IMG/VR virus record: IMGVR_UViG_2585427774_000008
Reading direction: 5' to 3' (one strand)
Source: a virus
Lineage: Duplodnaviria; Heunggongvirae; Uroviricota; Caudoviricetes
Length of the DNA: 41,590 nt
Shown here: positions 6,263 through 41,590 of the stretch, one piece after another
Layout of the letters: each line of letters opens with the position of its first letter
Numbering within the stretch: position 1 is the first letter of the stretch
Position numbers and translations under genes: made by a program
The notes under the pieces: generated by a model
What the model saw: the letters and a program-made list of their open reading frames with translations, nothing else
What the model was told of the DNA's origin: nothing
The model's database searches: none

Positions 6263-6505
6263 GATGTTCTCCAGTTTTTCTGAGTGAACTTCGCTGGTGG
6301 TGCCGCGGCGCTGATCTTCACGGTTGAGCGTTTTAACTCTGCAATTCACCACCGCGAAGCTCACTCTGTGCTTTGCCCTTGTCGCCAGGCTGGCGGAACG
6401 TTTCAAACCTACTGCGCGTTAATCTCACCACCTCATTCCGGTCTTCGTATGCCCCGGACGGCTTCTTCGTGGGCGTCCTGCTTTGGTGGTTGTGTTGATG
6501 GAGTA

Positions 6506-6545
6506 ATTAAACACAATGTTTATTTGCGTGTCAACATAATGAGTG
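6506..6545 (-). promoter_or_regulatory. Candidate PL promoter with OL operators
   Basis: On minus strand, consensus -35 TTGACA (plus 6529-6534), 17-nt spacer, -10 TTTAAT (plus 6506-6511); operator-like palindrome taaacacaatgttta (6508-6522) and half-site tcaacataatg (6531-6545) matching OR sites. Confidence 0.5.
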
Positions 6546-6646
6546 TTTTTATATAAACAAAAAGTTTAGTTGGTTGCGCTCGTTGGCACGAGTAGTATGT
6601 TTTGTGGTCTATTTTGTGGTTATAAAAAAATCGATGAGGGTGAGTT

Positions 6647-6853
6647 ATGGATCGTGACGAACTGGAAGAAGACCGCGCAGCGTTTATTGCGGGGGAGATT
6701 GGTGGCGCAGTTGTCAGTCTGATAGCTAACGGGATTGTGATCAGCCGCGATGCGATTGTGGATAGTCTAGAGGCTAAGCGCAGGGTAGTGGGAAACGTCA
6801 TTCACAAGTGGGTATTGCGGGATGCGGCTGCTATGGTGAGAAAAGGGCAATAA
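6647..6853 (+). CDS. Hypothetical small protein
   Basis: 68-aa ORF with GAGGGTGAG SD; followed by hairpin terminator. Confidence 0.45.
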   Translation: MDRDELEEDRAAFIAGEIGGAVVSLIANGIVISRDAIVDSLEAKRRVVGNVIHKWVLRDAAAMVRKGQ

Positions 6854-6889
6854 AAAACCCAGTTCGGTAACTGGGTTATTGCTTTATTC
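6850..6889. terminator. Bidirectional rho-independent terminator
   Basis: Hairpin aacccagt-tcggta-actgggtt (6856-6877); A-run upstream gives a U-tract on the minus strand, T-rich tract downstream on plus; sits between convergent genes. Confidence 0.55.
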
Positions 6890-7342
6890 AACAGATGATG
6901 GGGGGGTCGGTGCTTTCTTAAAGATCGACCACTGAGAAATGTAGGTCAGCAACCTTGAGCTTAACTCGAGTTCTTTTCGTAATATTTCGTCATAACGTTT
7001 TTTTGCTGCTTGCATGGTCGCATCACTAGCGTGATTGTCATCCATAATGATCTTTAGCCTTTTCTTTTCTCGGCTTGAGCATATTGTAAATAACAGACCT
7101 GTAAATGACATTCCACCAAAATCCTTTAACGTTTTGATTACAAAAAGAAGAATCAAAGACAGAAAAGGAACAGATCTGTAGGCCCAATCACGAAACTCAC
7201 CGTCAGGAAAGAAGATAGGAATAGCATCTGTAGCATAACCACATATGAGGGAGACAATTAGAAAAGGTAGTCCATTTTTAGCTACATTTTTAACGTTATC
7301 GTTAGCCATGATTTTTTCCCGAGAACGATTTCGAGTCAACAT
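6884..7342 (-). CDS. Small membrane protein (possible superinfection exclusion SieB-like)
   Basis: 152-aa ORF (141 aa from second ATG); hydrophobic segments LPFLIVSLICGY and VPFLSLILLFVI; located in immunity region downstream of repressor. Confidence 0.45.
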   Translation of the reverse strand: MLTRNRSREKIMANDNVKNVAKNGLPFLIVSLICGYATDAIPIFFPDGEFRDWAYRSVPFLSLILLFVIKTLKDFGGMSFTGLLFTICSSREKKRLKIIMDDNHASDATMQAAKKRYDEILRKELELSSRLLTYISQWSIFKKAPTPPSSVE

Positions 7343-7685
7343 GTAACTTTTGTGTTTTGACTACATAATACGCAAATCCAATCTTAACTAACCAATAAGC
7401 TACTGGTATGAGTGCTGCGTAAAGAGGGATATAGTACATAACCTTACCTCCTGTTAACCACACTATAACACCTAGCATCACTATTAGCGCGACAGAAAAT
7501 GCTTTCAGCCCAACACAGCTATCAGGATGTGAAACACTGTTCCTTAGCAACAATATCTTGGATTCATCAAGTGTGTAAGGAATATCGCCAACATGATTTT
7601 CGATTTTTGGGAAGGTCTCAAATACTTCAACCCGATCAATCGAAATAATTGAGCTTGATTGATGATCTAAGCAAACTGCAGCCAC
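7302..7685 (-). CDS. Hypothetical protein with C-terminal transmembrane segment
   Basis: 127-aa ORF from GTG located 2 nt after upstream stop; an internal ATG at 7439 has a strong AGGAGG SD and would give a 45-aa membrane peptide. Confidence 0.4.
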   Translation of the reverse strand: MAAVCLDHQSSSIISIDRVEVFETFPKIENHVGDIPYTLDESKILLLRNSVSHPDSCVGLKAFSVALIVMLGVIVWLTGGKVMYYIPLYAALIPVAYWLVKIGFAYYVVKTQKLHVDSKSFSGKNHG

Positions 7686-7687
7686 TG

Positions 7688-8011
7688 TTATCCCTCTCGA
7701 ACCTTTAGTGATACTCGGTTAGCAGCAAATGTGGCAATGAAACCACATTCTACACATATAACAGGGAATGCCCATATACCTCGGCCAGCTGAATGAGGTA
7801 GAGGAAGGGTAATTATTGCAGGATAGTCTTGACTATCTTCTCGTGGAGGAACTCCCCAAAGCGTATGCTTACAAAGCGGACAGGCCATCTCGCCATGTTT
7901 TTCTTCGAGGCGTTGAAAATAATCTCCAAATTCTTGTCTTGATATTGATAGCGTCAATGCTGTTGTATTGACACTTTCCTGACTTTTTTCTTCTTCAACC
8001 TGTTCGCCCAT
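7688..8011 (-). CDS. Zinc-ribbon protein, hypothetical
   Basis: 107 aa from ATG at 8011 (track starts at TTG 8023); CPLCKH and CVECG motifs. Confidence 0.5.
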   Translation of the reverse strand: MGEQVEEEKSQESVNTTALTLSISRQEFGDYFQRLEEKHGEMACPLCKHTLWGVPPREDSQDYPAIITLPLPHSAGRGIWAFPVICVECGFIATFAANRVSLKVREG

Positions 8012-8122
8012 CTCAGCTCTCAATATAATGATAATTAACTGGTAAGTGAATTTTGCATATCGTTAAGATGTATCCCATTGGTACAGAAACATCTGAGGGG
8101 TAAGTAGCTTTTAACTACCGTG

Positions 8123-8518
8123 CTACTCACCATCCCCCTTAATCCGCCGTCCCATGTACTTGGCGTACAGTTCATCGAGTTCTTTCAACCGTAGAGATAC
8201 GATCCGCAACATGTTCTGTTGTTCTTCTTCGTTTGGGAGTTGATTATAGAGTTCCAACAGTCTCCGTTCGTCGTGTCTCAAACCGTCCTTAGCATCCACG
8301 TCCTGACCTAGAACCCACTCAAGACTTACGCCTAGCGCATCGGCAAGTTTTATTGCTGAGCTTTTTCCTATCGCTCCTCTGACAAACCAGTTGTTGACTG
8401 ATTGTGCGCTCACACCACAGATTCTCGCTATATCCGCTTTGGATATGCGCTTCTTCTCGATGATTTCATTTAACCGCCGAACCTGCGGGTTATCTGTTTG
8501 GTGTGTGTTTTTTCTCAT
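8123..8518 (-). CDS. HTH (XRE-family) prophage repressor, RacR/CI-like
   Basis: 131-aa ORF; HTH segment ISKADIARICGVSAQSVNNW; divergent from cro-like gene; no SD before ATG (likely leaderless); no S24 peptidase domain evident. Confidence 0.8.
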   Translation of the reverse strand: MRKNTHQTDNPQVRRLNEIIEKKRISKADIARICGVSAQSVNNWFVRGAIGKSSAIKLADALGVSLEWVLGQDVDAKDGLRHDERRLLELYNQLPNEEEQQNMLRIVSLRLKELDELYAKYMGRRIKGDGE

Positions 8519-8526
8519 ATATCAAG

Positions 8527-8594
8527 ATTCTAAACTAAAAGTTTATCGCCTCAACATTCATAATGTTGACTTTAATATAAACATAATGTTTAAT
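8527..8594. promoter_or_regulatory. OR region: divergent PR/PRM-like promoters with two operator palindromes
   Basis: Perfect palindromes TCAACATTCATAATGTTGA (8551-8569) and TAAACATAATGTTTA (8578-8592); plus strand -35 TTGACT (8566-8571) and -10 TTTAAT (8589-8594); minus strand -35 TTGAGG (plus 8549-8554) and -10 TAGAAT (plus 8527-8532) ending about 7 nt before the repressor ATG. Confidence 0.6.
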
Positions 8595-8621
8595 TTGGTT
8601 CGTTATTACTTGGAGCCAAAT

Positions 8622-8855
8622 ATGAAAGCACTTGATAAAGCAATATGCATCGTAGGGGGTGCAACCCGTTTAGCAGAAAAGCTCAATGTATCCCCAATGA
8701 CGGTCAGTCACTGGCGTCACCGTGACAATGGATTCGTACCGGCTAACCGTGTCATTCCTATTTTCAATGCTACAGGTGTAACTCCACATGAGTTACGCCC
8801 TGATTTGTACCTCAACCCTACGGATGGGTTACCAGCTCAGGAAGCGGGGGCATAA
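8622..8855 (+). CDS. Cro-like HTH regulator, YdaS family
   Basis: 77 aa from ATG at 8622 with GGAG SD (ORF track N-terminal extension rejected); MKALDKAI...GGATRLAEKLNVSPMTVSHW resembles YdaS/Cro-like proteins. Confidence 0.75.
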   Translation: MKALDKAICIVGGATRLAEKLNVSPMTVSHWRHRDNGFVPANRVIPIFNATGVTPHELRPDLYLNPTDGLPAQEAGA

Positions 8856-8857
8856 CC

Positions 8858-9397
8858 ATGCAGTCACTGTCACTTCATCAAAATAGCGGATATCAACCGG
8901 CTGCGATGATAAATCGCAATCAACCTGTCTCGGTAGATAAACATGACCAGATCCGCGATGCCGTTCGTGCGTGGGCGGGTGTAGATGGTCAGGATGTCGT
9001 TTCTGCTCTGATCGTCGAAGAGTACCGGGCGAAGGGTGGTGACGAGATTACTTTCCCTAGCGATCTCAGCCGACAGCGTCAGAAGCTTTTCCGCTTTCTC
9101 GATAACCATTTCAATAGCGAGCGGTACCGCGAGAACGTTCGTCAGTTGACGCCGGCAATTCTTGCTGTTCTGCCGCTCGAGTTCCGCAATCGCCTGCTAC
9201 CAGAAGACAACGTTATGGCCCGTCTGGCTCGGCTGGAGAAAGAAACCAGCGAAGCGAAGATTGCCGTCGCGATGAATGCTCCACGTCATCAGAAGCTGAA
9301 AGAGTTGAGCGAGGGGATCGTGGAGATGTACCGCGTTGACCCTAGCTTAACCGGTCCATTGATGGAGATGGTGCAGATGATGCTGGGGGTTGTATGA
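8858..9397 (+). CDS. YdaT-like regulatory protein (cII-position)
   Basis: 179-aa ORF immediately downstream of YdaS-like gene, same arrangement as Rac ydaS-ydaT. Confidence 0.5.
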   Translation: MQSLSLHQNSGYQPAAMINRNQPVSVDKHDQIRDAVRAWAGVDGQDVVSALIVEEYRAKGGDEITFPSDLSRQRQKLFRFLDNHFNSERYRENVRQLTPAILAVLPLEFRNRLLPEDNVMARLARLEKETSEAKIAVAMNAPRHQKLKELSEGIVEMYRVDPSLTGPLMEMVQMMLGVV

Positions 9398-14143: not shown

Positions 14144-14280
14144 CATTTGAATCCTGTTTTTCCGATCACCTCCGCGTTCGCTGGCAGCGGCTTCGCTTAT
14201 ACCACTTTCCCGGCTCTGTGCTAACGGACTACCGGATACTGAAGAATTACGTGAAAACTTATGCTGGAGAAGCGCTATGA
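14140..14280 (+). CDS. YlcG-like small protein
   Basis: 46-aa ORF not in track ([25 protein letters not shown]...); ATGA overlaps with rusA stop and with Q start. Confidence 0.5.
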
Positions 14281-15059
14281 ACCTTGAAAACACAGTGAAA
14301 TACCACTTCGCTAAATCCACACTGATTAGCGATTCTCCGCGCGCTACCGCCTCCGATTCACTGACCGGTACCGACATAATGGCTGCCATGGGCATGACGC
14401 AGGAACGCGCCGCAATGGGTTACAGCGCCTTCCTCGGCAAGATGGGCATAAGCAATAACGACCGGGATCGGGCGATCGGTCTGCTGGCTGAGTACGCGAT
14501 GACAAAATGCGACAAGGTTGCCGCACTGCGTAAGCTCGGTGCCGCGGTTAAACCTCAGGTGATGCACCAGTTGGCCACCTTCGCTTTTGAGGACTATTCC
14601 CGCAGCGCTGCCAGCGTGAAGCAGTGCGATTGTTGTGACGGTCAGGGCTTCATTGAGGCTGACGTGTTTACCAATAAATTCCGTAAGCCAGAAGGGAAAA
14701 TGACCGTGTCCGGGATGGTGAAGGTCAAAGAATCCATCAAAGTGCTATGCAAAAAGTGTAATGGCTCTGGTGTGGTTAGTGCTTCTTGCAGTGATTGCCA
14801 TGGGCGCGGCAAGGCAGTGAACCAGGCTCTTACTGAGAAACAGGGCGTTCCTGTTCTGGCTGACTGTAAGCGCTGCGGAGGGCGTGGGTATGAACGACTT
14901 CCGTCGACTGAAGCCTATGCTGCTGTATGCCAGATTACTGACGCCATTAGCCTGGACACCTGGAAAAAGTCTGTTAAGCCATTCTACGACCTGCTGATCA
15001 CGAAATTTGATATCGAAGAGTCCTGGGCCGAAAAACAGCTTAAGCAGATAACGCGGTAA
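14277..15059 (+). CDS. Late-gene antiterminator Q-like protein
   Basis: 260-aa ORF with GGAGAAG SD; four CxxCxGxG zinc-finger repeats; positioned between rusA and lysis cassette. Confidence 0.65.
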   Translation: MNLENTVKYHFAKSTLISDSPRATASDSLTGTDIMAAMGMTQERAAMGYSAFLGKMGISNNDRDRAIGLLAEYAMTKCDKVAALRKLGAAVKPQVMHQLATFAFEDYSRSAASVKQCDCCDGQGFIEADVFTNKFRKPEGKMTVSGMVKVKESIKVLCKKCNGSGVVSASCSDCHGRGKAVNQALTEKQGVPVLADCKRCGGRGYERLPSTEAYAAVCQITDAISLDTWKKSVKPFYDLLITKFDIEESWAEKQLKQITR

Positions 15060-15115
15060 CGCCTATAGCGATAGCCTATGATTTTGTCTTGGGCTATTTA
15101 CTTTTCCCGAATCTG

Positions 15116-15198
15116 TGTTAATTTTGTCCCAACGATGGGTTAATGCCTTCGTTTCAAGCCCTGCGGATAACACCGTGGGGTTTTTGCGTTTCTGGAGA
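15116..15198 (+). promoter_or_regulatory. Candidate late promoter and short-transcript terminator (PR'/tR'-like)
   Basis: Extended -10-like TGgGTTAAT (15136-15144); hairpin ccctgcgg-ataaca-ccgtgggg (15169-15190, two G-U pairs) followed by TTTTT. Confidence 0.35.
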
Positions 15199-15262
15199 CA
15201 GCAATACCAAGGTTCGAGACATTCAGGTAAAATTGATGCATTACAGGATGTGAGGTTGGGGA

Positions 15263-15832
15263 ATGAATAATCTACCCGATGATTACTTTTTGGATGCGGA
15301 CGACGAACTCGTTGCTTTTCTGGAGAAGCAGGGCGAGGATTGTATACGCGAAATTCACCAGTCCAACGCACTAAACAAAGAAAATGGCCAGAAGTTATTG
15401 AGTATACTCATTGCTGGCGTGGGCTCGTCATTTTTGTTATTAACGCAACGTACAGGTTTTGATTACCTCACCGCTGGAATGTCTGTTTTTTTAGTCTACT
15501 GGGCAATGTGTGCGGCTTATCTTGTTCGCTGCGTCCTCGTTGTAAGGTCACGAGCTCTCGTGTCATCGACACCCTATGCGCTTTACCATGATGGCTATAA
15601 AGGGTTTACTGAAGATGATTACACTGGTTTTGAGTCGAAAGGATTTTCAGGAAAGCGTTCAACATTGAACGTCTTGCGGCGCTACCGGCTTGCGGATTTA
15701 ACCAGAATGGCTGAAATGAGTAAAAAAGAGAATGCCAGAATAGGCCGAGAACTAGAAAGGGTAAGGATCGCTACAATCCTCACCCCTGTTTGTGCACTTG
15801 TAATCTCAGTACTTACTTACCTTTTTTTCTGA
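15263..15832 (+). CDS. Hypothetical membrane protein (late moron)
   Basis: 189-aa ORF with GAGG SD; acidic N-terminus, hydrophobic segments LLSILIAGVGSSFLLL, VFLVYWAMCAAYLV and ILTPVCALVISVLTYLFF. Confidence 0.5.
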   Translation: MNNLPDDYFLDADDELVAFLEKQGEDCIREIHQSNALNKENGQKLLSILIAGVGSSFLLLTQRTGFDYLTAGMSVFLVYWAMCAAYLVRCVLVVRSRALVSSTPYALYHDGYKGFTEDDYTGFESKGFSGKRSTLNVLRRYRLADLTRMAEMSKKENARIGRELERVRIATILTPVCALVISVLTYLFF

Positions 15833-15962
15833 TGTTTTCAGCAGAATCGGCAACAAAGGTATAACCTGTCCTCAGATTTCTTTCGGCTGGCTGTGGAGCC
15901 GGTTTAGGCTGTGGTGCGGGTTGAGGCTTATTTTCTCCAGATGGTTTGTTTGATTCACTCAT
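15813..15962 (-). CDS. Small Pro/Gln-rich ORF, doubtful
   Basis: 49-aa ORF not in track with GGAGAA SD (MSESNKPSGENKPQPAPQPKPAPQPAE...); overlaps 3' end of previous gene. Confidence 0.25.
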   Translation of the reverse strand: MSESNKPSGENKPQPAPQPKPAPQPAERNLRTGYTFVADSAENIRKKGK

Positions 15963-16054
15963 ATAATTCTCCATGTTTGATAGGGTTATTTTTGGCGATT
16001 TAACGATATCAAATACAGTGATTTGCTGCTAGAGCATGCACTTATCTATAACTC

Positions 16055-16086
16055 GCCCCGGCACCCGCTGGGGCTTTTTTATTTCC
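16055..16086 (+). terminator. Rho-independent terminator upstream of lysis cassette
   Basis: 8-bp GC-rich stem gccccggc/gctggggc with acc(c) loop followed by TTTTTTATTT. Confidence 0.65.
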
Positions 16087-16196
16087 GGCTCACGGTAATC
16101 ATCCGCTACGTGCTTTGTTGATAAATCCAACCCGTGAAGCCTGAGCCTATTTCCCCTCATACCTGAGAGGACTCACAGCAATTAAGAGGGGGCTAA

Positions 16197-16583
16197 ATGT
16201 CCGATCCAATTTCCGGTACTGGGCTGGCTGGTGGTGCCCTGACGGGTGCCAGTGTTTATGGACTGCTGACCGGAACTGATTACGGCGTTGTATTTGGCGC
16301 ATTTGCAGGGGCTGTATTCTACATAGCAACAGCAGCGGATCTGAGCGCATCGCGCCGACTGGCATATTTTATCGTGTCGTATATTGCCGGGATCCTTTGC
16401 TCTGGGTTGGTTGGCTCCAAGCTGGCAAGCTTGACCGGATACAGTGATAAACCTCTGGATGCCATTGGTGCCGTAATCGTATCTGCTTTAGCCGTTAAGA
16501 TCCTGACGTTCCTGAATAATCAGGATATCGGGTCGCTGGTGGCGCTCATAACGCGCCGGGGAGGTTCAGGTGGAGCTAAATGA
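16197..16583 (+). CDS. Putative holin
   Basis: 128-aa ORF with AAGAGGGGG SD; Gly/Ala-rich hydrophobic helices; first gene of lysis cassette. Confidence 0.6.
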   Translation: MSDPISGTGLAGGALTGASVYGLLTGTDYGVVFGAFAGAVFYIATAADLSASRRLAYFIVSYIAGILCSGLVGSKLASLTGYSDKPLDAIGAVIVSALAVKILTFLNNQDIGSLVALITRRGGSGGAK

Positions 16584-16851
16584 CCCGACAGCAACTATAA
16601 ACGCGCTGTTATGTGCTTGTGTTGTTATTACTCTGATGTTTTATCGTCGTGGTGATTCGCGGCATCGTCCTTGGGTTTCACGTTTAGCCTGGCTGATTAC
16701 TGTTACATACAGTGCTGTTCCGTTGGCCTATCTCTGTGGGATTTATCCCCATTCCTCATGGCCCATTATCGTGGCGAATACTATTTTTCTTTCCGTGCTG
16801 GTGGCCGTCAGAGGCAACGTTGCACGCCTGGTTGATCATCTGAGGCACTAA
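16570..16851 (+). CDS. Second holin-like membrane protein
   Basis: 93-aa ORF from GTG with GGGGAGG SD; two to three hydrophobic segments; overlaps neighbours. Confidence 0.5.
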   Translation: MELNDPTATINALLCACVVITLMFYRRGDSRHRPWVSRLAWLITVTYSAVPLAYLCGIYPHSSWPIIVANTIFLSVLVAVRGNVARLVDHLRH

Positions 16852-17465
16852 TGAACCAACAATTATTTCAAAAGGCGGCTGGTATCAGCGCCGGACTGGC
16901 TGTGCGCTGGTTTCAACCAGTAGATGCAGCGATGAAAGAATTCGGCATTACAGCACCCGCGGATCAGGCCATGTTCATCGCTCAGGTAGGTCATGAGTCA
17001 GGCGGCTTTAGCGCTGTAGTTGAAAATTTGAACTACACACCATCTGCGCTGGTGGCGACCTTCGGAAAGAGGATCACACAGCAGCAGGCTGATGCGCTTG
17101 GCAGAACAACCGAACACGCAGCCCGCCAGGATGCTATCGCCAATCTGGTGTATAGCAACCGCCTGGGTAACAAAGCGCCCGGCGACGGCTGGAAATATCG
17201 CGGCAGAGGGTTAATTCAAATCACTGGCCTCGACAATTATCGCACCTGCGGGGCGGCGTTGAAGTTAGACCTCGTTACTTCACCTGAACAGCTCGAACAG
17301 GAACTTCAGGCAGCACGCTCTGCCGCCTGGTTCTACACATCCAAAGGGTGCATGGCCTACGGTGCCGATATTACTCGTGTTACGCGCATCATTAACGGCG
17401 GCCTGAATGGCATTGATGACCGCAAAATCCGCTACAACAAAGCGCGGGCGGCGCTGCTGGTATGA
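16851..17465 (+). CDS. Endolysin, glycoside hydrolase family 19 (chitinase-like)
   Basis: 204-aa ORF; GH19-type motifs AQVGHESGGF, NLNY, GRGLIQITGLDNY. Confidence 0.85.
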   Translation: MNQQLFQKAAGISAGLAVRWFQPVDAAMKEFGITAPADQAMFIAQVGHESGGFSAVVENLNYTPSALVATFGKRITQQQADALGRTTEHAARQDAIANLVYSNRLGNKAPGDGWKYRGRGLIQITGLDNYRTCGAALKLDLVTSPEQLEQELQAARSAAWFYTSKGCMAYGADITRVTRIINGGLNGIDDRKIRYNKARAALLV

Positions 17466-17854
17466 AAATGAGTTATTGGGTGCTCATTGTGACGTTTATC
17501 GCCTGTATTGCAGGCGGTCTTGTCTGGTCAGCGGATCACTACCATGGAAAATTTCTGGAGGAACAGCGTCGCGCTGACGATGCAGAACAGCGTGCTGATT
17601 CCTCTGAGACCATCACCGCGAATGTCCTGCGCACCGTAGCAATAACGAACATCATTCTGGAGACAAACCAACATGCTAAGCAGCAGATCGCACTGGAGTC
17701 ACAGAGAGCCGAGAACGATATCAAAGCTGCTGTTGCGGATGATGATTGTGCTGTTCGTGTTGTGCCTGCTGGCGCAGTTAAGCGGCTGCACGAATACGCG
17801 AACGGTCTACGTGCCGGTTCCGGTAGTTCCATTACCAGCCAGCCTGACGGCTGA
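17462..17854 (+). CDS. Rz-like inner-membrane spanin
   Basis: 130-aa ORF, N-terminal TM helix (YWVLIVTFIACIAGGLVW) then charged coiled-coil-like region. Confidence 0.7.
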   Translation: MKMSYWVLIVTFIACIAGGLVWSADHYHGKFLEEQRRADDAEQRADSSETITANVLRTVAITNIILETNQHAKQQIALESQRAENDIKAAVADDDCAVRVVPAGAVKRLHEYANGLRAGSGSSITSQPDG

Positions 17855-19389: not shown

Positions 19390-19602
19390 CTAGGCTTGTT
19401 TTGGTCGAGTAATACGGCCAAGAGCTTTAATTGCAGCGACTTTGACGTTGTGATTTAGATCCGAAGATAAATCAAGTAAGCGATTTACATGAGCTGGCGT
19501 TGCTGAAGCACTCTCGCCGAGAGCATAAATTGCAGACAATTTTACTTCGTTGTTAAGGTCGTTGGTTAATTCCAACAACTTAGCGCTAACTGCTGGTGTC
19601 AT
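19390..19602 (-). CDS. Small HEAT-repeat-like protein (antisense moron)
   Basis: 70 aa from ATG at 19602 with AGGAGG SD; two repeats LNNEVKLSAIYALGE / LNHNVKVAAIKALGR; region appears AT-rich. Confidence 0.4.
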   Translation of the reverse strand: MTPAVSAKLLELTNDLNNEVKLSAIYALGESASATPAHVNRLLDLSSDLNHNVKVAAIKALGRITRPKQA

Positions 19603-19673
19603 AAAACCTCCTGTAATTGGTACATAAACAATATCAACTTTGTTACGCAAAAACTCAATGCCTGGAATTGTTT

Positions 19674-33578: not shown

Positions 33579-34646
33579 ATGTCTCTTAACTGGATGCGCC
33601 ATTTTGAGCTGCAACTGTTGGACCAGAACGGGCAGGGCGTTTCCCTGTCTGATTTTAAGGTCACGTTCCAGATCGAGTGGGCAGATACACGCTGGCCGCG
33701 AGTGGCGAACGTGAAAATTTACAACCTTTCGACCGATACCACGAACAAGATACTGGGGCAGGAGTTTGCCAAAATTCGCATCATTGCCGGGTATGACGGT
33801 ATAGCGCCGGATGTTGATGCGAGCCAGGTTGGTGTGTCCCGGGAGATTTCACCAGACCAGATAGGGCAGGTGAACGGTCAGAACTACGGCCTGATTTTTG
33901 ACGGTGATATTCGCTTCACCGTCACCGGGAAGGACAACATCACCGATTCCTGGGTGCTGATTCAGGCCATCAGTAACCACGAAGCGTTCCTCTACGCGAC
34001 TACCATCACCACGCTTGCCGCTGGTTATACCGTTGCGGACCTGCACCGGGCGACTATGCAGGATTTCAACGCGTTCGGCGTGACGCAGGGCATTACCGGT
34101 GACTTTCCTGATACCGTGTTTCCTCGTGGCCGTGCGATTTATTCATCCACCCGTAACGTGATGGATAATATTGCTGCGCAGTGCAAAGCGACATGGCAGC
34201 TGGTGGATGGTCAGGTCCAGATGGTGCCGGAGGATAAATATATTCACGAAGCCATTGTGTTGAATGCCGATACTGGCCTGATCGGTATGCCGCAACAAAC
34301 GATGGGCGGCGGAGTAAACGTGCGGTGCCTGATAAACCCAAACATCCGTATTAATGGTCTTATCCAGCTCGATCAGGCTTCGGTGTACCGCGCCGCGCTC
34401 GGCAATAGCGAAATCGCACAGTCGCCCGGGCGTATCACCGAAACAGAAGAGAACGGCAACCGTGTGCTGACCGGCACGACGTCACAGGCTGCCAGCATTG
34501 CGACGGATGGCGTTTATATCGTCAAAGCTATCGACTATACTGGCGACACCAGAGGTCAGGCGTGGTACATGGATTTGATGTGTTTTGCGCGTGGCGCTCG
34601 TGACCTGATTAGCCAGTCGACTATAGCTCGCTCAGGAGGAAATTAA
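33579..34646 (+). CDS. Hypothetical baseplate/tail protein
   Basis: 355-aa ORF in tail operon. Confidence 0.5.
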   Translation: MSLNWMRHFELQLLDQNGQGVSLSDFKVTFQIEWADTRWPRVANVKIYNLSTDTTNKILGQEFAKIRIIAGYDGIAPDVDASQVGVSREISPDQIGQVNGQNYGLIFDGDIRFTVTGKDNITDSWVLIQAISNHEAFLYATTITTLAAGYTVADLHRATMQDFNAFGVTQGITGDFPDTVFPRGRAIYSSTRNVMDNIAAQCKATWQLVDGQVQMVPEDKYIHEAIVLNADTGLIGMPQQTMGGGVNVRCLINPNIRINGLIQLDQASVYRAALGNSEIAQSPGRITETEENGNRVLTGTTSQAASIATDGVYIVKAIDYTGDTRGQAWYMDLMCFARGARDLISQSTIARSGGN

Positions 34647-35537
34647 GTGGGTACAAATAAGAACGGAATTCGATATAGCGCACTTTTTCTTTCCGGGTTG
34701 CTCTTATCCGGGGGCGCGAGTGCAGGCTTTAATTCCGCGCAGAACGCTGAGTACAAAAGACGTCCAGGATGGCAGCCGATAGTAATTTTATCGACAGATG
34801 ATTGTCAGACATGGAAATCTAAAGGGAAGTCACTAATTGACTGGAGTGGCGAGATCTGTGGTCCTGACGGGTTGATTAAGGCAATCAATAAAAAGCCGGA
34901 GAATATACCAGCTTTTTATGCTGCATATCATGAGTACGGCACAGGTGGAGTTAGGGCTATCGATGTAAGAGATAATTCTCAGCTAAATTATCTCAATTTT
35001 GTAAATGATTTAGCTAAGAAACTTTCTTCTTCGGCTGTTGTATTAAAGATTTATGATGATTATATCATTGATAGAAAACCCATGGGGCTTGCAGAGGTTT
35101 CACGAGAAAATTTTGTAAAACAGCTAAATGAGTTATCGCTGAAGCAACCTGCCATCTATCAAAAAATGAACGACGTAGCCAAGGCTGATTACGAGAAAAG
35201 TAGTAATGTTCACAGTAACGAAAAGCTTGGCGTGAATTACAAAACAGTCTGTGGTCCTTATACGATTGATCTGTCTTCTGCTGATGGTTGGGCCAGAATT
35301 AATGGCGCAAAACCAGAGACGCAAAAAATTAGCCCAATCGGCTCTGGTGGTAGCACCAAAGGGGAACCGGATAACATCAAGATGGAGTGGATGGCTGCCA
35401 CTAATCAACCCGGCCGCTGGGTTGGGCTTGAGTACATCAAGCGCAACGGAAAAGCTATTCTCAACGCACAGTGGTTGCAGGCCAGCATAGACGCGCCGCG
35501 CCAGTATGCAACATACGACTGCCGAAAAGTAAAATAG
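34647..35537 (+). CDS. Secreted/periplasmic protein with signal peptide (moron), function unknown
   Basis: 296-aa ORF from GTG with AGGAGG SD; N-terminal signal-peptide-like MGTNKNGIRYSALFLSGLLLSGGASA; four Cys; region appears AT-rich. Confidence 0.6.
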   Translation: MGTNKNGIRYSALFLSGLLLSGGASAGFNSAQNAEYKRRPGWQPIVILSTDDCQTWKSKGKSLIDWSGEICGPDGLIKAINKKPENIPAFYAAYHEYGTGGVRAIDVRDNSQLNYLNFVNDLAKKLSSSAVVLKIYDDYIIDRKPMGLAEVSRENFVKQLNELSLKQPAIYQKMNDVAKADYEKSSNVHSNEKLGVNYKTVCGPYTIDLSSADGWARINGAKPETQKISPIGSGGSTKGEPDNIKMEWMAATNQPGRWVGLEYIKRNGKAILNAQWLQASIDAPRQYATYDCRKVK

Positions 35538-35555
35538 CCCGCCAGATAGGCGGGC
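35537..35555. terminator. Hairpin between convergent genes
   Basis: gcccgcc-agata-ggcgggc inverted repeat. Confidence 0.4.
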
Positions 35556-35560
35556 ATGCG

Positions 35561-35851
35561 TCAAAAATATTGAGCTTTAATTATAATAAACACAATAATT
35601 ACGAACAGGATGTTTCTAATTATTTTTTGCTTATGAGTAAGTTGTTTTTTTTCTGTCGATTTCCCGGGAGAGTAAAGGTTAGTGGTATGCGACAGCCCCG
35701 TGCCGGGAAGGCCATTTGTCATCTTTACGCCTTTTTTCCCGATGTTAATGGTGGAACCTTTACCACCAATTGAAGTGCTTACTCCGCTTTTACTAATGTT
35801 GATCGCGAGTCCGGGCGCAATCCGGATTCTTTTACGAAATCTAAATCCCAT
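35561..35851 (-). CDS. DUF4236-like small membrane-anchored protein
   Basis: 96-aa ORF with AGGAG SD; N-terminus MGFRFRKRIRIAPGLAINISKSG recalled as DUF4236-type; C-terminal TM helix ILFVIIVFIII. Confidence 0.55.
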   Translation of the reverse strand: MGFRFRKRIRIAPGLAINISKSGVSTSIGGKGSTINIGKKGVKMTNGLPGTGLSHTTNLYSPGKSTEKKQLTHKQKIIRNILFVIIVFIIIKAQYF

Positions 35852-36037
35852 TTGTTACTCCTGTAGTCAATAATGCGATGGTGCAGGTCCACTCTATGGC
35901 GGCTTCATGGCTGAAATTGATTTTCAATGCTTACTTGTTGCAAACATATCCTAATACACCTTGTGAATGTGTGCCATTGCAGCGGAAAAGCCTTACTTCA
36001 CACTGATGTAGCTTAGTTACTAAGAGATAATTGATAC

Positions 36038-36063
36038 CAAACCAGCTTCGGCTGGTTTTTTTA
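36038..36063 (+). terminator. Rho-independent terminator
   Basis: aaccagc-ttcg-gctggtt hairpin followed by TTTTTTT. Confidence 0.65.
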
Positions 36064-36073
36064 TGGGGGTTTT

Positions 36074-36814
36074 ATGCCAATCCCAACTCAATCACAGATC
36101 GGCGGTGAGCAGCAGACCGCGCAGGCCATTGCCGATTCTGTGTCTACCCAGATGCGCGTAGCGATGCCCGGCATCATTCAGTCGTTCGATCCTGACACTG
36201 TTACCTGCACAGTAGAGGTAGCGCTTCGCGGTATTGTTGGCGATGGCTCCACCGAATTAAAACCGCTGGTGGATGTGCCGGTTATCTTCCCGCGCGGCGG
36301 CGGTTGCACGCTGACCTTTCCGGTAAAAGAAGGCGACGAGTGCCTGCTGATCTTTGCCGACCGTTGCATCGATTTCTGGTGGCAGAGCGGCGGCGTTCAG
36401 GAGACCGTCGATCCGCGACAGCATGACTTATCTGATGCGTTCGCCATCGTTGGCCCGCAGTCGCAAGCACAGAAAATCAGCGGTATCAGTACCAGCGCCG
36501 CGCAGCTGCGAACCGATGATGGTGCGGCGTTCGTAGAGGTTGCCGCAGGACATAACATCACCGTTCAAACACCGGGCCAGCTCACGGCTACGGCTGAAGG
36601 TGGAACGACAATCACATCCCCGACTATCACGCTGAACGGCAACGTAACGATTAATGGCAATCTGTCTCAGGGAATGGGCGAAAGTGGCGGTACTGCGACG
36701 ATGCTTGGGCCGGTGACGGTGACTAACGATGTGAAGGCTGGAGGTAAGAGCCTCATCCAGCATACCCATGGCGGTGTGCAGAATGGCAGCGGGAATACTA
36801 CCGCGCCTAATTAA
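36074..36814 (+). CDS. Baseplate spike protein, gpV-like
   Basis: 246-aa ORF; C-terminal region TLNGNVTINGNL...HTHGGVQNGSGNT typical of gpV-type spikes. Confidence 0.65.
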   Translation: MPIPTQSQIGGEQQTAQAIADSVSTQMRVAMPGIIQSFDPDTVTCTVEVALRGIVGDGSTELKPLVDVPVIFPRGGGCTLTFPVKEGDECLLIFADRCIDFWWQSGGVQETVDPRQHDLSDAFAIVGPQSQAQKISGISTSAAQLRTDDGAAFVEVAAGHNITVQTPGQLTATAEGGTTITSPTITLNGNVTINGNLSQGMGESGGTATMLGPVTVTNDVKAGGKSLIQHTHGGVQNGSGNTTAPN

Positions 36815-39936: not shown

Positions 39937-40368
39937 ATGAGAGCGTATTTTATTCCATCGGTACCAACATTCATTTCTGAATCATGGAAAAGTGACGGTA
40001 CCTATACAAAAGAAAACTGGCCCTCTGATGCTGTGCTCGTTACCGAAGAAGAGACTGCTGAATACTGGATGACCATACCACCTGATGGGAAAAAACTTGG
40101 TGCTGTGGATGGGAAACCAGCGTGGGTTGATATTCCGCCCCAGACCCGGGAAGAATTGATTACGACTGCTGAGAATGAACGTCAGCGGCTGTTGGCTCAC
40201 GCTGATGCGATGATGCTCGACTGGCGTACAGAATTAATGCTGGGAGAAATCAGCGACGCCAACAAAGCAACATTGTCGGCGTGGCTGGCATATAAAAACG
40301 ATGTGAAATCGGTTGATGTGACAATCGACCCTGAGCATGTTAGCTGGCCTGTTCCCCCGGAAGCGTAG
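39937..40368 (+). CDS. Tail fibre assembly protein (Tfa)
   Basis: 143-aa ORF directly after fibre gene; C-terminal region typical of Tfa chaperones. Confidence 0.7.
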   Translation: MRAYFIPSVPTFISESWKSDGTYTKENWPSDAVLVTEEETAEYWMTIPPDGKKLGAVDGKPAWVDIPPQTREELITTAENERQRLLAHADAMMLDWRTELMLGEISDANKATLSAWLAYKNDVKSVDVTIDPEHVSWPVPPEA

Positions 40369-40690
40369 GCCATACGGGTTTTGCTGTATCAACTCGCATC
40401 AGCAAGACCCGGTATTTTTTCCATTCAGAAAGCGCGGCGGTTTCCTCATCAGTCGAGATACCGGCATCAACCGCATCCTGTCGCCAGGCTATCTCGGCGT
40501 CAGCAATGGCTCGTAATTGCAACTTATTAGCTTCGGCTTTCTCGATCAATTCTGCCTGCGACGGTGGATGATTTAATATTGAATTAACCTCATCTTCCGT
40601 AATTTCTTTTTTATTACCAATAAACTTATCTTGTGAACCGTCATCCTCATAGGCATAAATTATATCTGCATCATCGATAAAATACTTCAT
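40340..40690 (-). CDS. Alternative tail fibre assembly protein (Tfa')
   Basis: 116-aa ORF convergent with Tfa; MKYFIDDADIIYAYEDDG...KKYRVLLMRVDTAKPVWPTLP. Confidence 0.7.
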   Translation of the reverse strand: MKYFIDDADIIYAYEDDGSQDKFIGNKKEITEDEVNSILNHPPSQAELIEKAEANKLQLRAIADAEIAWRQDAVDAGISTDEETAALSEWKKYRVLLMRVDTAKPVWPTLPGEQAS

Positions 40691-40989
40691 CTTAGCTCCC
40701 TCCAGTTTACACTTGAGATACCAGTGGTAATAACCTGGTAGGTGGAATTATTGGGAATAACGGGGCAATAACCTCCTGCGCCACTTATTGTCACACCATT
40801 TATTCGGACATTCACAGACCAGCTTGCTGATGGTCGGACAAAATCAAGCAATAACTGAATTGGTTTTCCTGTTGTGTTTGTGTAAACCACTCCAATACTT
40901 CTACTTGATGTCATGTCTTGCCATGTCTGATCAACTCCGAGGCTTACTTTTGCAGCTTCTCCCAATTGAACCTTTTTTATAACCATCAA
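40687..40989 (-). CDS. Alternative tail fibre variable C-terminal segment (S'v-like)
   Basis: 100-aa ORF; N-terminus KKVQLGEAAKV parallels NLGLGEIATV in the + strand fibre at the left crossover site. Confidence 0.55.
   Translation of the reverse strand: MMVIKKVQLGEAAKVSLGVDQTWQDMTSSRSIGVVYTNTTGKPIQLLLDFVRPSASWSVNVRINGVTISGAGGYCPVIPNNSTYQVITTGISSVNWRELR
40957..40982 (-). promoter_or_regulatory. Candidate invertase crossover site (right), hix/gix-like
   Basis: Minus strand reads TTATAAAAAAGG-TT-CAATTGGGAGAA; about 60 nt upstream of the invertase ATG. Confidence 0.5.
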
Positions 40990-41041
40990 AAATCTGGTGA
41001 TGCTTCGCCGTTTCTCCTGTTTTCATAACAGGAGAAATCCC

Positions 41042-41590
41042 ATGATTTACGGTTATGCCCGAGTATCAACAAACCACCAGGACACTGAATTGCAACTAAC
41101 GGCGCTCAAGTCAGCGGGTTGTGAGAAAATTTTTGAAGAGCATGCCAGCGGGAGGAAATCGAATCGGCCGGTTCTAAAACGGCTGATCGCCACTATGCAG
41201 CCGGGGGATGAACTGGTGGTCTGGAAGCTGGACAGGATAGGCCGCAACGTTCTGCATGCGCTGTTGATGTTCCAGCAGTTACAGGAAAAGGGTATCAACT
41301 TCCGCAGTATTACCGATGGCGTGGATCTCAAAACAGCCAGCGGCCGCTATAAATTTCGTAACATCCTTTCCGCAGCACAATATGAATCTGATCTTAATAG
41401 CGAACGTACCTTAGCAGGGCTGGCCGTAGCCAGGGCAAAAGGGCGAGTTGGTGGTCGCAGGCCTAAGTTCACGGATGAGCAATGGCGGGAAATGGGGGAG
41501 CGGATGGCAACCGGTGAATCACGACAAAGCGTATCAAAAACGTATGGAGTAGGGCTCTCAACTCTGTATAAAAAGTTTCCAGCTAGCTGA
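41042..41590 (+). CDS. Serine DNA invertase (Hin/Gin/Pin/Cin family)
   Basis: 182 aa from ATG at 41042 with AGGAG SD; strongly resembles Hin as recalled (GYARVST, LVVWKLDRIGRNV, GVGLSTLYKKFPA); stop coincides with window end. Confidence 0.9.
   Translation: MIYGYARVSTNHQDTELQLTALKSAGCEKIFEEHASGRKSNRPVLKRLIATMQPGDELVVWKLDRIGRNVLHALLMFQQLQEKGINFRSITDGVDLKTASGRYKFRNILSAAQYESDLNSERTLAGLAVARAKGRVGGRRPKFTDEQWREMGERMATGESRQSVSKTYGVGLSTLYKKFPAS

Follow-up and report, generated by a model that had tools for sequence, protein, structure and literature searches.

The slot between the late-gene activator gene Q and the holin gene, which in Stx phages carries stx, holds some of the most consequential cargo of lambdoid phages (Shiga toxin), and other cargo found there matters for prophage biology. 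In Stx lambdoid phages, stx lies between Q/PR'/tR' and the S holin gene (PMC8065619). The cassette described here, a pair of head-on genes in an E. coli prophage, occupies the same slot and follows the same transcriptional logic: both cargoes lie downstream of a Q-dependent late promoter and terminator, and antiterminated late transcription would therefore cross the cargo toward the lysis genes. Stx is a secreted AB5 toxin, whereas the larger cassette product is predicted to be a cytoplasm-facing protein with three transmembrane (TM) segments and has neither a signal peptide nor toxin homology. The cassette also differs from the Stx cargo in being a convergent pair with its own putative promoters and its own closing terminator.

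A second point of comparison is the moron, for which we use the classical lambdoid definition (Juhala/Hendrix) in the form quoted in PMC2629481. HK97 gp15, lambda bor and lom resemble the cassette as optional extra units between conserved neighbours, with deviant GC content, a terminator and a putative promoter, whereas two genes in obligatory head-on overlap correspond to no described moron design. Homology to HK97 gp15 itself (62 aa) was rejected (hhalign probability 0.3%); the slot alone is shared, in some phages.

Exclusion genes and cis-antisense pairs offer further parallels. Lambda SieB (184 aa) is similar in size to the 189-aa membrane protein of the cassette, and as sieB is convergent to N, so the large gene of remote cassette relatives is convergent to the leftward operon beside the repressor. 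RexAB is also a two-component system, combining a membrane protein with a soluble partner. However, the topology and motifs of SieB and RexB are unlike those of the 189-aa protein, and homology to either was rejected (hhalign probability 0.05% for SieB and 0.7% for RexB; no Pfam SieB match). In lambda oop/cII, P22 sar/ant and hok/sok, as in the cassette, two transcripts necessarily overlap at their 3' ends and a small constitutive promoter (putative in the cassette) faces a stronger regulated unit. Unlike in those systems, the antisense transcript of the cassette encodes a conserved protein, and the 'target' is 189 aa long rather than a short hydrophobic peptide. Although antisense overlap is present, membership of the type I toxin-antitoxin class was rejected on the size of the 189-aa protein, the purifying selection on the antisense ORF and the lack of an Rfam family. 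Assignment to a known anti-phage defence system was likewise rejected, neither protein matching PADLOC-DB v2. In our literature searches, the RefSeq accessions and PHROG ids of the cassette proteins appeared in no paper, and keywords retrieved no description of the module.

Results

A mobile two-gene cassette between Q and the lysis genes

The window, that is, the whole stretch of 41,590 nucleotides analysed here, belongs to a prophage of E. coli; in an identical prophage of E. coli LR-33, NCBI PGAP annotates both cassette genes. The slot from the late-gene activator gene Q to the lysis genes is occupied by region 15198-16070, which we read as a moron of a lambda-like late operon: an accessory cassette of two genes that is self-contained and horizontally mobile. 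It consists of a gene for a three-TM inner-membrane protein on the late strand and a small basic-protein gene that meets it head-on and overlaps its 3' end, and it is bounded by two intrinsic terminators, one on each side. The features are as follows.

14277-15059, plus strand: Q antiterminator gene, a lambda-Q homologue with extra DnaJ-type CxxCxGxG zinc fingers (PF03589, phrog_127)
15097-15144, plus strand: PR'-type late promoter and qut-like element (alignment with lambda PR')
15156-15197, plus strand: tR'-type intrinsic terminator (11-pair stem and T-rich tail)
15263-15832, plus strand: gene for the 189-aa inner-membrane protein (ORF, GAGG Shine-Dalgarno, phrog_11870)
15813-15962, minus strand: gene for the 49-aa basic Pro/Gln-rich protein (phrog_14506, PGAP, GGAGAA Shine-Dalgarno)
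16055-16086, plus strand: intrinsic terminator closing the cassette (8-bp stem with 7 GC pairs, then T6)
16197-17854, plus strand: lysis cassette, given as context (Pfam Phage_holin_8, Phage_holin_3_7 and Glyco_hydro_19; PHROG lysis families)
16197-16583 and 16570-16851, plus strand: two holin-family genes (Pfam and PHROG matches)
16851-17465, plus strand: GH19 endolysin gene (Glyco_hydro_19)
17462-17854, plus strand: Rz-like spanin gene (PHROG lysis family)

The region upstream of the cassette has the components of a lambda-type PR'-qut-tR' late operon, namely a lambda-family Q, a pause-inducing element and a nearby intrinsic terminator. The Q product matches PF03589 (E 2.2e-45) and is 37% identical to lambda Q (E 1e-54). 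PR' comprises a -35 TTTACT (15097-15102), an extended -10 TGtTAATTT (15116-15124) and, in the initially transcribed region, the sigma-pause block AACGATGGGTTAAT (15131-15144), which is the same as in lambda PR' and invariant in four related phages; by analogy with lambda, Q probably loads at this element. For the transcript 15131-15197 the folding energy is -23.9 kcal/mol (z -2.3), and the annotation of phage HK225 records the same tR' element as a rho-independent terminator. An initial annotation of this DNA had placed an extended -10 and a tR'-like hairpin directly after the Q-like gene; both are present, although its hairpin at 15169-15198 is the 3' half of the true tR'. The strong terminator that it had placed before the holin was also found, folding at -17.5 kcal/mol (z -3.0). 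Every element of that annotation lies where it was initially placed, give or take a few bases. Given this lambda-like layout, the Q-antiterminated path from PR' to the holin must run through the cassette.

Comparison with related phages delimits the cargo. The left limit of what can be swapped coincides with the end of tR' (TTTCTGGAG), with homology to other phages stopping at 15197, and the right conserved flank (16070-16151) begins with the 3' arm and T-tract of the closing terminator; in HK225, mEp237 and KL53, homology to the window resumes at 16070/16071. These three phages and MB06022 keep both flanks (15000-15197 and 16070-16151) with other cargo or none between them, and the flanks are also present in 82 of 5426 complete E. 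coli genomes, where the interior is swapped or missing. Among flank-sharing phages the Q-holin slot measures 1137, about 1105, about 1230, about 760-790, 443 or 359 bp. The alternative cargo genes HK225_067 and mEp237_056 gave no informative family or defence match. GC content of the cassette is 44.2%, compared with 52% for the whole window and 52-55% for Q, the first holin gene and the endolysin, which puts it among the lowest 6.7% of equal-sized windows. Presence or absence in collinear related phages, a downstream terminator and deviant base composition, all features of classical morons, are therefore found together here. The shared flanks around other or no cargo and the low GC content support the initial proposal of a moron in the Stx-equivalent slot. 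Its description as accessory cargo stands, whereas its description as a single late gene gives way to a conserved two-gene module. Since the same anatomy is conserved across 66 distinct cassettes from other prophages, a chance origin is excluded.

The large gene encodes a membrane protein

The 189-aa protein matches phrog_11870 ('unknown function'; E 5.6e-84). As initially reported, its ORF encodes three hydrophobic segments (residues about 45-62, 69-94 and 166-189), two of them strong and one moderate. The predicted layout is an N-terminal cytoplasmic helix, TM1, TM2, a cytoplasmic segment and a C-terminal TM3, in which the N-terminal helix is acidic (net charge -7) and the cytoplasmic segment is basic (net +6) with an RRYRL motif. 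The protein terminates inside TM3 (…VLTYLFF) and has no charged C-terminal tail of the kind typical of holins. Structure prediction, which the initial annotation had recommended, yielded three long helices (AF2, pLDDT 80) but no informative fold relative.

Homologues fall into 115 clusters (90% identity), every one 'hypothetical', with remote relatives besides, and are found in gut and plant-associated Enterobacterales. An exhaustive profile search of 1.8 billion representatives returned only 104 matches, all of the same architecture and none of them an annotated relative. Pfam, NCBIfam and PADLOC gave zero matches for either cassette protein, and a PDB sequence/profile search gave nothing below E 0.05. 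With ten remote relatives as queries, Pfam returned nothing meaningful; for the remote relatives, PADLOC-DB v2 returned a single weak, TM-biased match ('2TM effector', E 0.004). The 189-aa protein has no signal peptide, its N-terminus being acidic, and no lipobox, and it shows no similarity to virulence, transport or stress families in Pfam, NCBIfam or the PDB.

Two candidate identities were rejected on these grounds. A Shiga-like or other secreted toxin does not agree with the lack of a signal peptide and of toxin-domain homology (Pfam, NCBIfam, PDB), and a holin or antiholin does not agree with the lack of any Pfam or PHROG holin match, whereas both downstream genes do match holin families. 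Nothing ties the product to a toxin, and the protein resembles neither toxins nor holins nor structural proteins; homology to a standard lysis or structural component, which would have spoken against the initial proposal, was searched for and none was found.

The small gene on the opposite strand is a conserved partner

The 49-aa Pro-rich ORF on the minus strand, already present in the initial annotation, overlaps the 3' end of the convergent large gene by 20 nt, and its product matches phrog_14506 ('unknown function'; E 3.7e-25). It is not incidental: its conservation and its own putative promoter identify it as a partner gene. In each of the 66 distinct cassettes whose large ORF is intact, so is the small ORF, and in the small frame synonymous exceed nonsynonymous changes by 9119 to 8000, as against about 2000-2500 to 13000 in the shifted frames. 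On both counts the small ORF is, judged by its evolution, a real gene and the conserved partner of the large one. The convergent overlap is retained even in the remote homologues L098 and L099, and the frame, 46-64 codons long, is open in all cassettes, down to remote ones with about 30% identity. Its Shine-Dalgarno sequence and ATG are conserved, as are the protein motifs MSxxNKP...KPQ and VGDSA(D/E). One cassette (L016) has a frameshifted large ORF and keeps the small one. A seeming exception that lacked the small ORF (L091) traces to sequence ambiguity, an N and a homopolymer difference.

The 49-aa protein carries a net charge of +4, and its AF2 model has mostly no regular structure. The Lys-rich C-terminus of the protein is the counterpart, on its strand, of the Phe-rich end of the large ORF. 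We found no terminator between the two genes. The conserved small-gene leader is unstructured on folding, and its trans base-pairing with the large mRNA scored no better than that of shuffled sequences; Rfam gave one sub-threshold chance match in 14900-16400.

Conserved -10 elements suggest that each gene has its own promoter

Two upstream elements travel with the cassette.

15221-15233, plus strand: candidate promoter belonging to the large gene (ATTCAGG, then TAAAAT at 15228-15233 as the -10 hexamer)
15963-16032, minus strand: putative promoter and leader of the small gene (conserved upstream block, MAFFT alignment)

TAAAAT lies 29 nt before the ATG of the large gene and has no good -35. Of 26 non-redundant cassettes, 23 have a TAnnAT hexamer, mostly TAAAAT, between randomised flanks at 28-36 nt upstream of the ATG. 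The ATTCAGG-TAAAnT motif persists where the cassette does not follow Q, and a remote homologue has it too (ATTTCAGGTAAAGT). Upstream of the small gene are a weak -35 CTAGCA (16032 to 16027), an extended -10 TGATATCGT (16011 to 16003) and a conserved leader ATCGCCAAAAaTAAC that ends in the Shine-Dalgarno sequence GGAGAA (15999 to 15963). In a MAFFT alignment of 54 distinct small-gene upstream regions, the extended -10 lies 37-41 nt before the ATG, and TGnTAT(c/t)GT varies only at n and at hexamer positions 4-5; the promoter/leader block is conserved more strongly than the coding sequence that it precedes. A strict sigma-70 scan of 14800-16400 found no two-hexamer promoter; what points to the own promoter expected of a moron are the conserved -10 footprints at both genes. 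Since the substitution patterns fit what -10 elements tolerate, we infer that both genes have their own sigma-70 promoter, built on TAAAAT for the large gene and on the extended -10 TGATATCGT for the small one.

The pair is inherited together in several slots

The two genes are co-inherited across Enterobacterales prophages in several different moron slots and are found in prophage-type contexts only. In about 57 of about 85 related loci the cassette lies directly before the holin on the late strand, a position that, at about two thirds of loci, also fits a lysis-related role. Four Q families are found upstream of the pair and at least five holin families downstream. Phages that share the holin type of W619 lack the pair, and it is also found in the HK97 gp15 moron slot, flanked by the tail assembly chaperone and the tape measure. 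Remote relatives adjoin the cI repressor; one of these has its small gene immediately 3' of cI, in the same orientation. Because of the varied Q and holin neighbours, the absence alongside the same holin type and the other slots, we regard the cassette as independent of lysis.

Discussion

Given this anatomy, we propose a model in which the cassette protects the prophage as a membrane module with autonomous expression and with mutual regulation of its two genes by convergent transcription, and we put the probability of this model at roughly 40%. In the lysogen, both genes would be transcribed modestly, with the terminators insulating them from the lysis genes. The small-gene transcript would run antisense into the large gene and this antisense RNA would restrain the large product, while the basic small protein would probably bind the acidic cytoplasmic N-terminus of the membrane protein and restrain it as well, the two charges (+4 and -7) being complementary. 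Upon induction, Q-modified RNA polymerase from PR' would ignore tR', transcribe the large gene strongly and run head-on over the small gene and its promoter, tipping the balance to the membrane protein. The likeliest output would be a membrane-level phage conflict, either superinfection exclusion or abortive infection, analogous to lambda SieB/RexAB and other prophage exclusion genes in logic but not in sequence. Against autonomous expression, the promoters are recognised by conservation alone and the large gene has no recognisable -35; against exclusion, neither PADLOC, Pfam and NCBIfam nor hhalign against SieB and RexB found similarity to known exclusion or defence proteins. It is conceivable, though unlikely, that the cassette is a new kind of prophage switch, in which a membrane effector (acting by depolarisation, exclusion or abortive infection) is held by a labile, disordered small protein encoded antisense to it. 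A reversal of the transcriptional balance would then release the effector, with Q-antiterminated late read-through or host shut-off by an invading phage as possible triggers.

The module is widespread, has no annotated function and counts no known defence, lysis or toxin family among its relatives. Its layout is under unusual constraint: the two genes obligatorily overlap head-on, a terminator lies on each side, and the putative promoter blocks are better conserved than the proteins. Were it to act in exclusion or abortive infection, it would represent a new family of prophage-encoded immunity and a clean natural convergent-transcription switch coupled to Q antitermination; a lysis-timing accessory would instead represent a new regulator class. 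If the switch exists as described, it would be a system of defence or timing without a catalogued relative, carried by Enterobacterales prophages in three or more moron slots.

The initial annotation had assumed late-only expression, and the large gene might indeed be expressed only by Q-dependent read-through after induction and play a lytic role, for example in modulating holin triggering or lysis timing or in late blocking of superinfection by progeny. Its place on the late strand, 3' of PR'/tR' and 5' of the holin, as in about 57 of the about 85 loci, is consistent with such a role, as are the three-TM inner-membrane product and the empty two-hexamer scan; late read-through would at the same time silence the antisense small gene. 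Yet the cassette is optional among phages with the same holin type, its conserved TAAAAT hexamer travels with it, and late operons are not its only location: it also sits in the tail-gene moron slot, and its remote relatives lie beside cI. A strong terminator before the holin would be pointless were all transcription Q-modified, and a protein that matches no holin or antiholin family and ends in a TM helix without a charged tail is a poor candidate for a lysis component. Late-only expression is accordingly doubtful, and we consider a lytic role unlikely. A slimmer prospect is a factor of lysogenic conversion, one or both products being expressed from the prophage as with lambda bor and lom, that serves host fitness (for instance colonisation, transport or tolerance of envelope stress) and not phage-phage conflict. 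Lambda bor is oriented against late transcription, as the small gene is, and the moron anatomy with its own putative promoters and terminators and the wide occurrence in gut and plant-associated Enterobacterales would suit such a factor. The protein has neither a signal peptide or lipobox nor similarity to virulence, transport or stress families, however, and phage-conflict genes are the more usual occupants of exclusion-gene slots and of sites next to cI, although this is a tendency only.

Selfish addiction, in which a toxic membrane protein is checked by an antisense transcript, an unstable small protein or both and so stabilises the prophage, is less probable still. The convergent overlap, with no terminator between the genes, forces transcript pairing; every natural cassette with an intact large ORF also has the small one, and the frameshifted L016 keeps the small ORF; and the predicted lack of structure in most of the small protein is a common trait of labile antitoxins. 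The pair nevertheless fits neither type I systems, in which the toxin is under 60 aa and the antitoxin a non-coding RNA, nor type II systems, which are co-directional operons with a DNA-binding antitoxin, and no toxin-antitoxin family was matched in Pfam, PADLOC or NCBIfam. We consider it highly improbable that the antisense RNA or the promoter alone matters and that the open frame is a by-product. Conservation of the promoter and leader above that of the ORF, the low complexity and predicted disorder of the 49-aa protein and the mirroring of the Phe-rich end of the large ORF in its Lys-rich C-terminus would all agree with an RNA-only role. Against this, the frame stays open in every cassette even at about 30% identity, the strong synonymous enrichment is confined to that frame, and the Shine-Dalgarno sequence, the ATG and both protein motifs are conserved.

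A mobile two-gene cassette between Q and the lysis genes

The window is a lambdoid E. coli prophage, in which nin-region genes and RusA are followed by Q, the cassette (15198-16070), two holin-family genes, a GH19 endolysin and an Rz-like spanin. The segment 15060-16196 is 100% identical to a segment of the E. coli LR-33 chromosome, and 6 of the 5426 complete E. coli genomes contain it at an identity of at least 99%. Bounded by terminators, low in GC and mobile, the cassette carries two co-inherited, convergent and overlapping protein genes downstream of a lambda-type PR'/tR'.

Features of the cassette and its left flank
14277-15059, Q antiterminator gene (PF03589, E 2e-45)
15097-15102, PR' -35 element TTTACT
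15116-15124, PR' extended -10 element TGtTAATTT, at which the interval of the initial annotation begins
15131-15144, initially transcribed block AACGATGGGTTAAT, identical in lambda
15156-15197, tR' hairpin and T-tract
15228-15233, putative -10 footprint of the large gene
15263-15832, plus strand, 189-aa ORF (large gene), GAGG ribosome-binding site
15813-15962, minus strand, 49-aa ORF (small gene), GGAGAA ribosome-binding site, 20-nt overlap with the large ORF
16011..16003, minus strand, putative extended -10 footprint of the small gene
16055-16086, terminator with an 8-bp stem, 7 GC pairs and T6 (-17.5 kcal/mol, z -3.0)

The initial annotation, made from the sequence alone, had described five elements, and each of them is there. 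It had proposed a Q-like gene followed by a PR'/tR'-like pair, and this holds: the Q protein is a homologue of lambda Q (37% identity, E 1e-54), the DNA between Q and the cassette aligns with lambda PR', and the tR' hairpin is present. The transcript of 15131-15197 has a predicted fold of -23.9 kcal/mol (z -2.3), and the site equivalent to tR' carries a terminator annotation in HK225. In lambda, the initially transcribed region contains a sigma-dependent pause element, at which Q loads. The Q protein of the prophage also has an insertion of ~53 aa compared with lambda Q, which adds extra CxxCxGxG (DnaJ-type) zinc-finger repeats.

When the region was compared by BLASTN with related phages and prophages, homology of the left flank extended through 15197 (…GTTTCTGGAG) and then ended, and homology of the right flank restarted within the 3' arm of the terminator of the cassette, at 16070/16071. 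The slot is occupied by a 411-nt minus-strand gene in HK225 and E. coli MB06022, by a 642-nt plus-strand gene in mEp237, by 443 or 359 bp free of annotated genes in KL53 and several other strains, and by a diverged copy of the two-gene pair in W619 (~49% protein identity). At 44.2% GC, the cassette is below the window as a whole (52%) and below Q, the endolysin and the first holin gene (53-55%); among windows of equal size it ranks in the lowest 6.7%. The cassette is a moron by the working definition as quoted in PMC2629481. The Stx-equivalent placement proposed for this cargo was correct, as was the strong terminator at its end.

Each cargo type has its own left terminator arm, and the right arm and T-tract are common to all; cargo exchange therefore seems to proceed by recombination inside the terminator. 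The 'empty' Q-holin slot of KL53 (locus L006, 2100-2360) holds ~250 bp of unrelated, unannotated sequence with its own terminator stem at the end, and strain ES8 has the 359-bp variant. No informative Pfam or PADLOC match was found for the alternative cargo genes HK225_067 (locus L001, 1637-2047), which lies opposite to late transcription, and mEp237_056 (locus L002, 1968-2609).

Distribution of the cassette

A Q protein lies upstream of the cassette at ~57 of ~85 loci, and these Q proteins fall into four families (PF03589, DUF1133/PF06530, PF06530 and PF06323) that are unrelated or related only distantly. On the downstream side lies a holin, drawn from at least five PHROG families. Since the same 92-aa holin type occurs with the cassette (W619) and without it (KL53 and HK225), the cassette is not part of a particular lysis system. 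In other phages (L054 and L060) it lies between the tail assembly chaperone and tape-measure genes, among Rha, Ant and lipoprotein morons, where HK97 has its gp15 'moron product'. The two remote members that were placed both adjoin a cI-type repressor and have a convergent, overlapping Pro/Lys-rich small ORF. At locus L099, the small ORF begins 15 nt past the stop codon of an S24-family repressor gene on the same strand, a position typical of lysogen-expressed genes such as rexAB in lambda. In two phages (L041 and L052), a 262-273-aa multi-TM protein, for which there was no Pfam match, precedes the cassette instead of Q; its gene may be a further piece of membrane cargo that travels close by.

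Two conserved convergent genes

The large gene encodes the 189-aa protein with three hydrophobic segments (residues ~45-62, 69-94 and 166-189) described initially. Structure prediction, suggested at the same time, gave an AF2 model (pLDDT 80, pTM 0.62) with three long helices (residues 14-62, 68-92 and 134-188), each of which has one end in the membrane. Residues 1-44 are acidic, with a net charge of -7, and contain the invariant motif YFLDxDDxLxxFLExQGE, and the TM2-TM3 segment is basic (net +6) with an invariant RRYRL motif; by the positive-inside rule, both soluble parts would be cytoplasmic and the chain would end at the periplasmic face. Fold and sequence searches returned no informative relative, and comparison of profiles with SieB and RexB of lambda and with gp15 of HK97 was negative. 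An exhaustive profile search for homologues of the large protein yielded only 104 representatives, all of 160-260 aa and of the same architecture, and none with a Pfam domain.

The initial annotation had described a moron of one membrane-protein gene, overlapped at its 3' end by an opposite-strand 49-aa ORF. The moron and the overlap stand; the single gene gives way to a conserved two-gene unit. From 88 related loci and annotated phages we obtained 66 distinct cassettes with an intact large ORF, and all 66 have an opposite-strand ORF of 46-64 codons overlapping its 3' end. The single apparent exception, locus L091, has an N and a homopolymer difference, and at locus L016 the small ORF is kept with the large ORF frameshifted. 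In the PGAP annotation both gene products are hypothetical proteins. Features common to the 46 distinct small proteins are an N-terminal MSxxNKP…E.KPQ, a Pro/Gln-rich middle and a C-terminal (F/Y)xxxRxxVGDSA(D/E)xxRKKxK. Single-nucleotide codon differences in the small-ORF frame are synonymous:nonsynonymous 9119:8000, against 2498:13046 and 2027:13658 in the two shifted frames, and because of this synonymous enrichment the small ORF is taken as established to be a protein-coding gene under purifying selection (phrog_14506). Its product is basic (net charge +4) and, modelled alone, is predicted to be mostly unstructured (pLDDT 64), with a short helix only at residues 41-47.

Promoter footprints of both genes

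When 54 distinct upstream regions of the small gene were aligned by MAFFT without an anchor, the block …TGATAT(C/T)GTTAAATCGCCAAAAGTAAC…GGAGAA…ATG was conserved above the level of either protein. Within it TGnTAT..T is invariant, and variation is seen at n (A, G or C) and at hexamer positions 4-5 (CG, TG, GG, TT or GT), as an extended -10 sigma-70 promoter would tolerate. This element lies 37-41 nt before the ATG. Upstream of the large gene a TAnnAT hexamer follows aTTcAGG, and in 23 of 26 non-redundant cassettes it is placed 28-36 nt ahead of the ATG, the anchored position statistics for both -10 footprints being partly circular. The large-gene hexamer is mostly TAAAAT (also TAAGAT, TAATAT and TAGTAT), one clade having TATAAT or TACAAT further upstream, and the sequence around it is randomised. 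The motif is retained in cassettes not downstream of Q and, as ATTTCAGGTAAAGT, in a remote homologue. The large-gene -35 is poor, and a strict two-hexamer promoter scan of 14800-16400 found none. Conservation suggests that both genes have their own promoters. No terminator was found between the two genes, so their transcripts must overlap.

The small-gene leader (ATCGCCAAAAaTAAC… to the Shine-Dalgarno; 15963-15999, minus strand) shows higher conservation across cassettes than both coding sequences and contains a loose inverted repeat, GTTA…TAAC. As RNA it is unstructured, and its pairing with the large mRNA is no better than that of shuffles; it is possibly an operator or translational-control site. 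In most other cassettes (for example L013, L068 and L085), an inverted repeat, GCCAGA-N7-TCTGGC, overlaps the small-gene -35 region between the small-gene promoter and the cassette terminator, where the window (16020-16054) has a different sequence; this repeat could bind a regulator or form a second hairpin.

Possible functions of the module

With promoters of their own, both genes would be expressed in the lysogen, the terminators shielding the lysis genes from module transcription and the module from terminated PR' transcripts. The small-gene transcript would restrain the membrane protein, as probably would the basic, labile small protein, acting on the acidic cytoplasmic face. Upon induction, Q-modified polymerase would pass tR', leading to over-expression of the large gene, and would collide with or occlude the small-gene promoter, inverting the ratio.

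Because of the slots occupied, the optional nature of the module and its membrane location, we tentatively favour a role in phage conflict at the membrane level, as superinfection exclusion or abortive infection, at a probability of about 0.4. A late-only role in lysis timing, in line with the late expression proposed initially, would suit a position behind PR'/tR', and has to be weighed against the cassettes in tail-gene and repressor-adjacent slots; we consider it unlikely. A host-fitness conversion factor, also compatible with lysogen expression, seems less probable again, and an addiction-type toxin-antidote pair, in which the small gene would supply the antidote, ranks below it. That the small ORF is a mere by-product is very improbable, being largely excluded by the synonymous enrichment in its frame.

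The module resembles Stx cargo in position and late-transcription logic, a classical moron in anatomy, and SieB or RexAB in placement and likely logic; its proteins belong to none of these families. It also fails the defining features of a holin, a toxin and a type I toxin-antitoxin system. Both genes already have database entries, under 'hypothetical protein' and in PHROG families of unknown function, and a literature search on either gene found no paper. What is new is the recognition of the two genes as one deeply conserved convergent module, the promoter footprints of both, and the multi-slot distribution. Cargo in the Q-holin slot is unsurprising in itself; the module is widespread, well-delimited and experimentally tractable.

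Other features of the prophage

Downstream of the cassette, a tandem pair of different holin-family genes (16197-16851; Phage_holin_8, then a three-TM Phage_holin_3_7, overlapping by 14 nt) may work as a holin/antiholin pair or as a two-component holin. Within the window, GC is lowest at 6500-9000, where it drops to 38%. Here three small ORFs (7688-8023, 7302-7685 and 6884-7342), two of them with hydrophobic segments, follow a cI-like HTH repressor gene (8123-8518, minus strand) on the same strand; the three occupy the rexAB-equivalent position and are therefore likely to be further lysogen-expressed cargo. An 86-aa ORF (19390-19650, minus strand) with HEAT/PBS-lyase-like repeats (…LNNEVKLSAIYALGE… / …LNHNVKVAAIKALG…), on the opposite strand to the packaging genes and immediately upstream of the gene for the large terminase, is possibly a further small moron. 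More low-GC islands (40-41%) in the tail and tail-fibre part, at 34501-36100 and 40301-41200, are candidates for additional accessory insertions.
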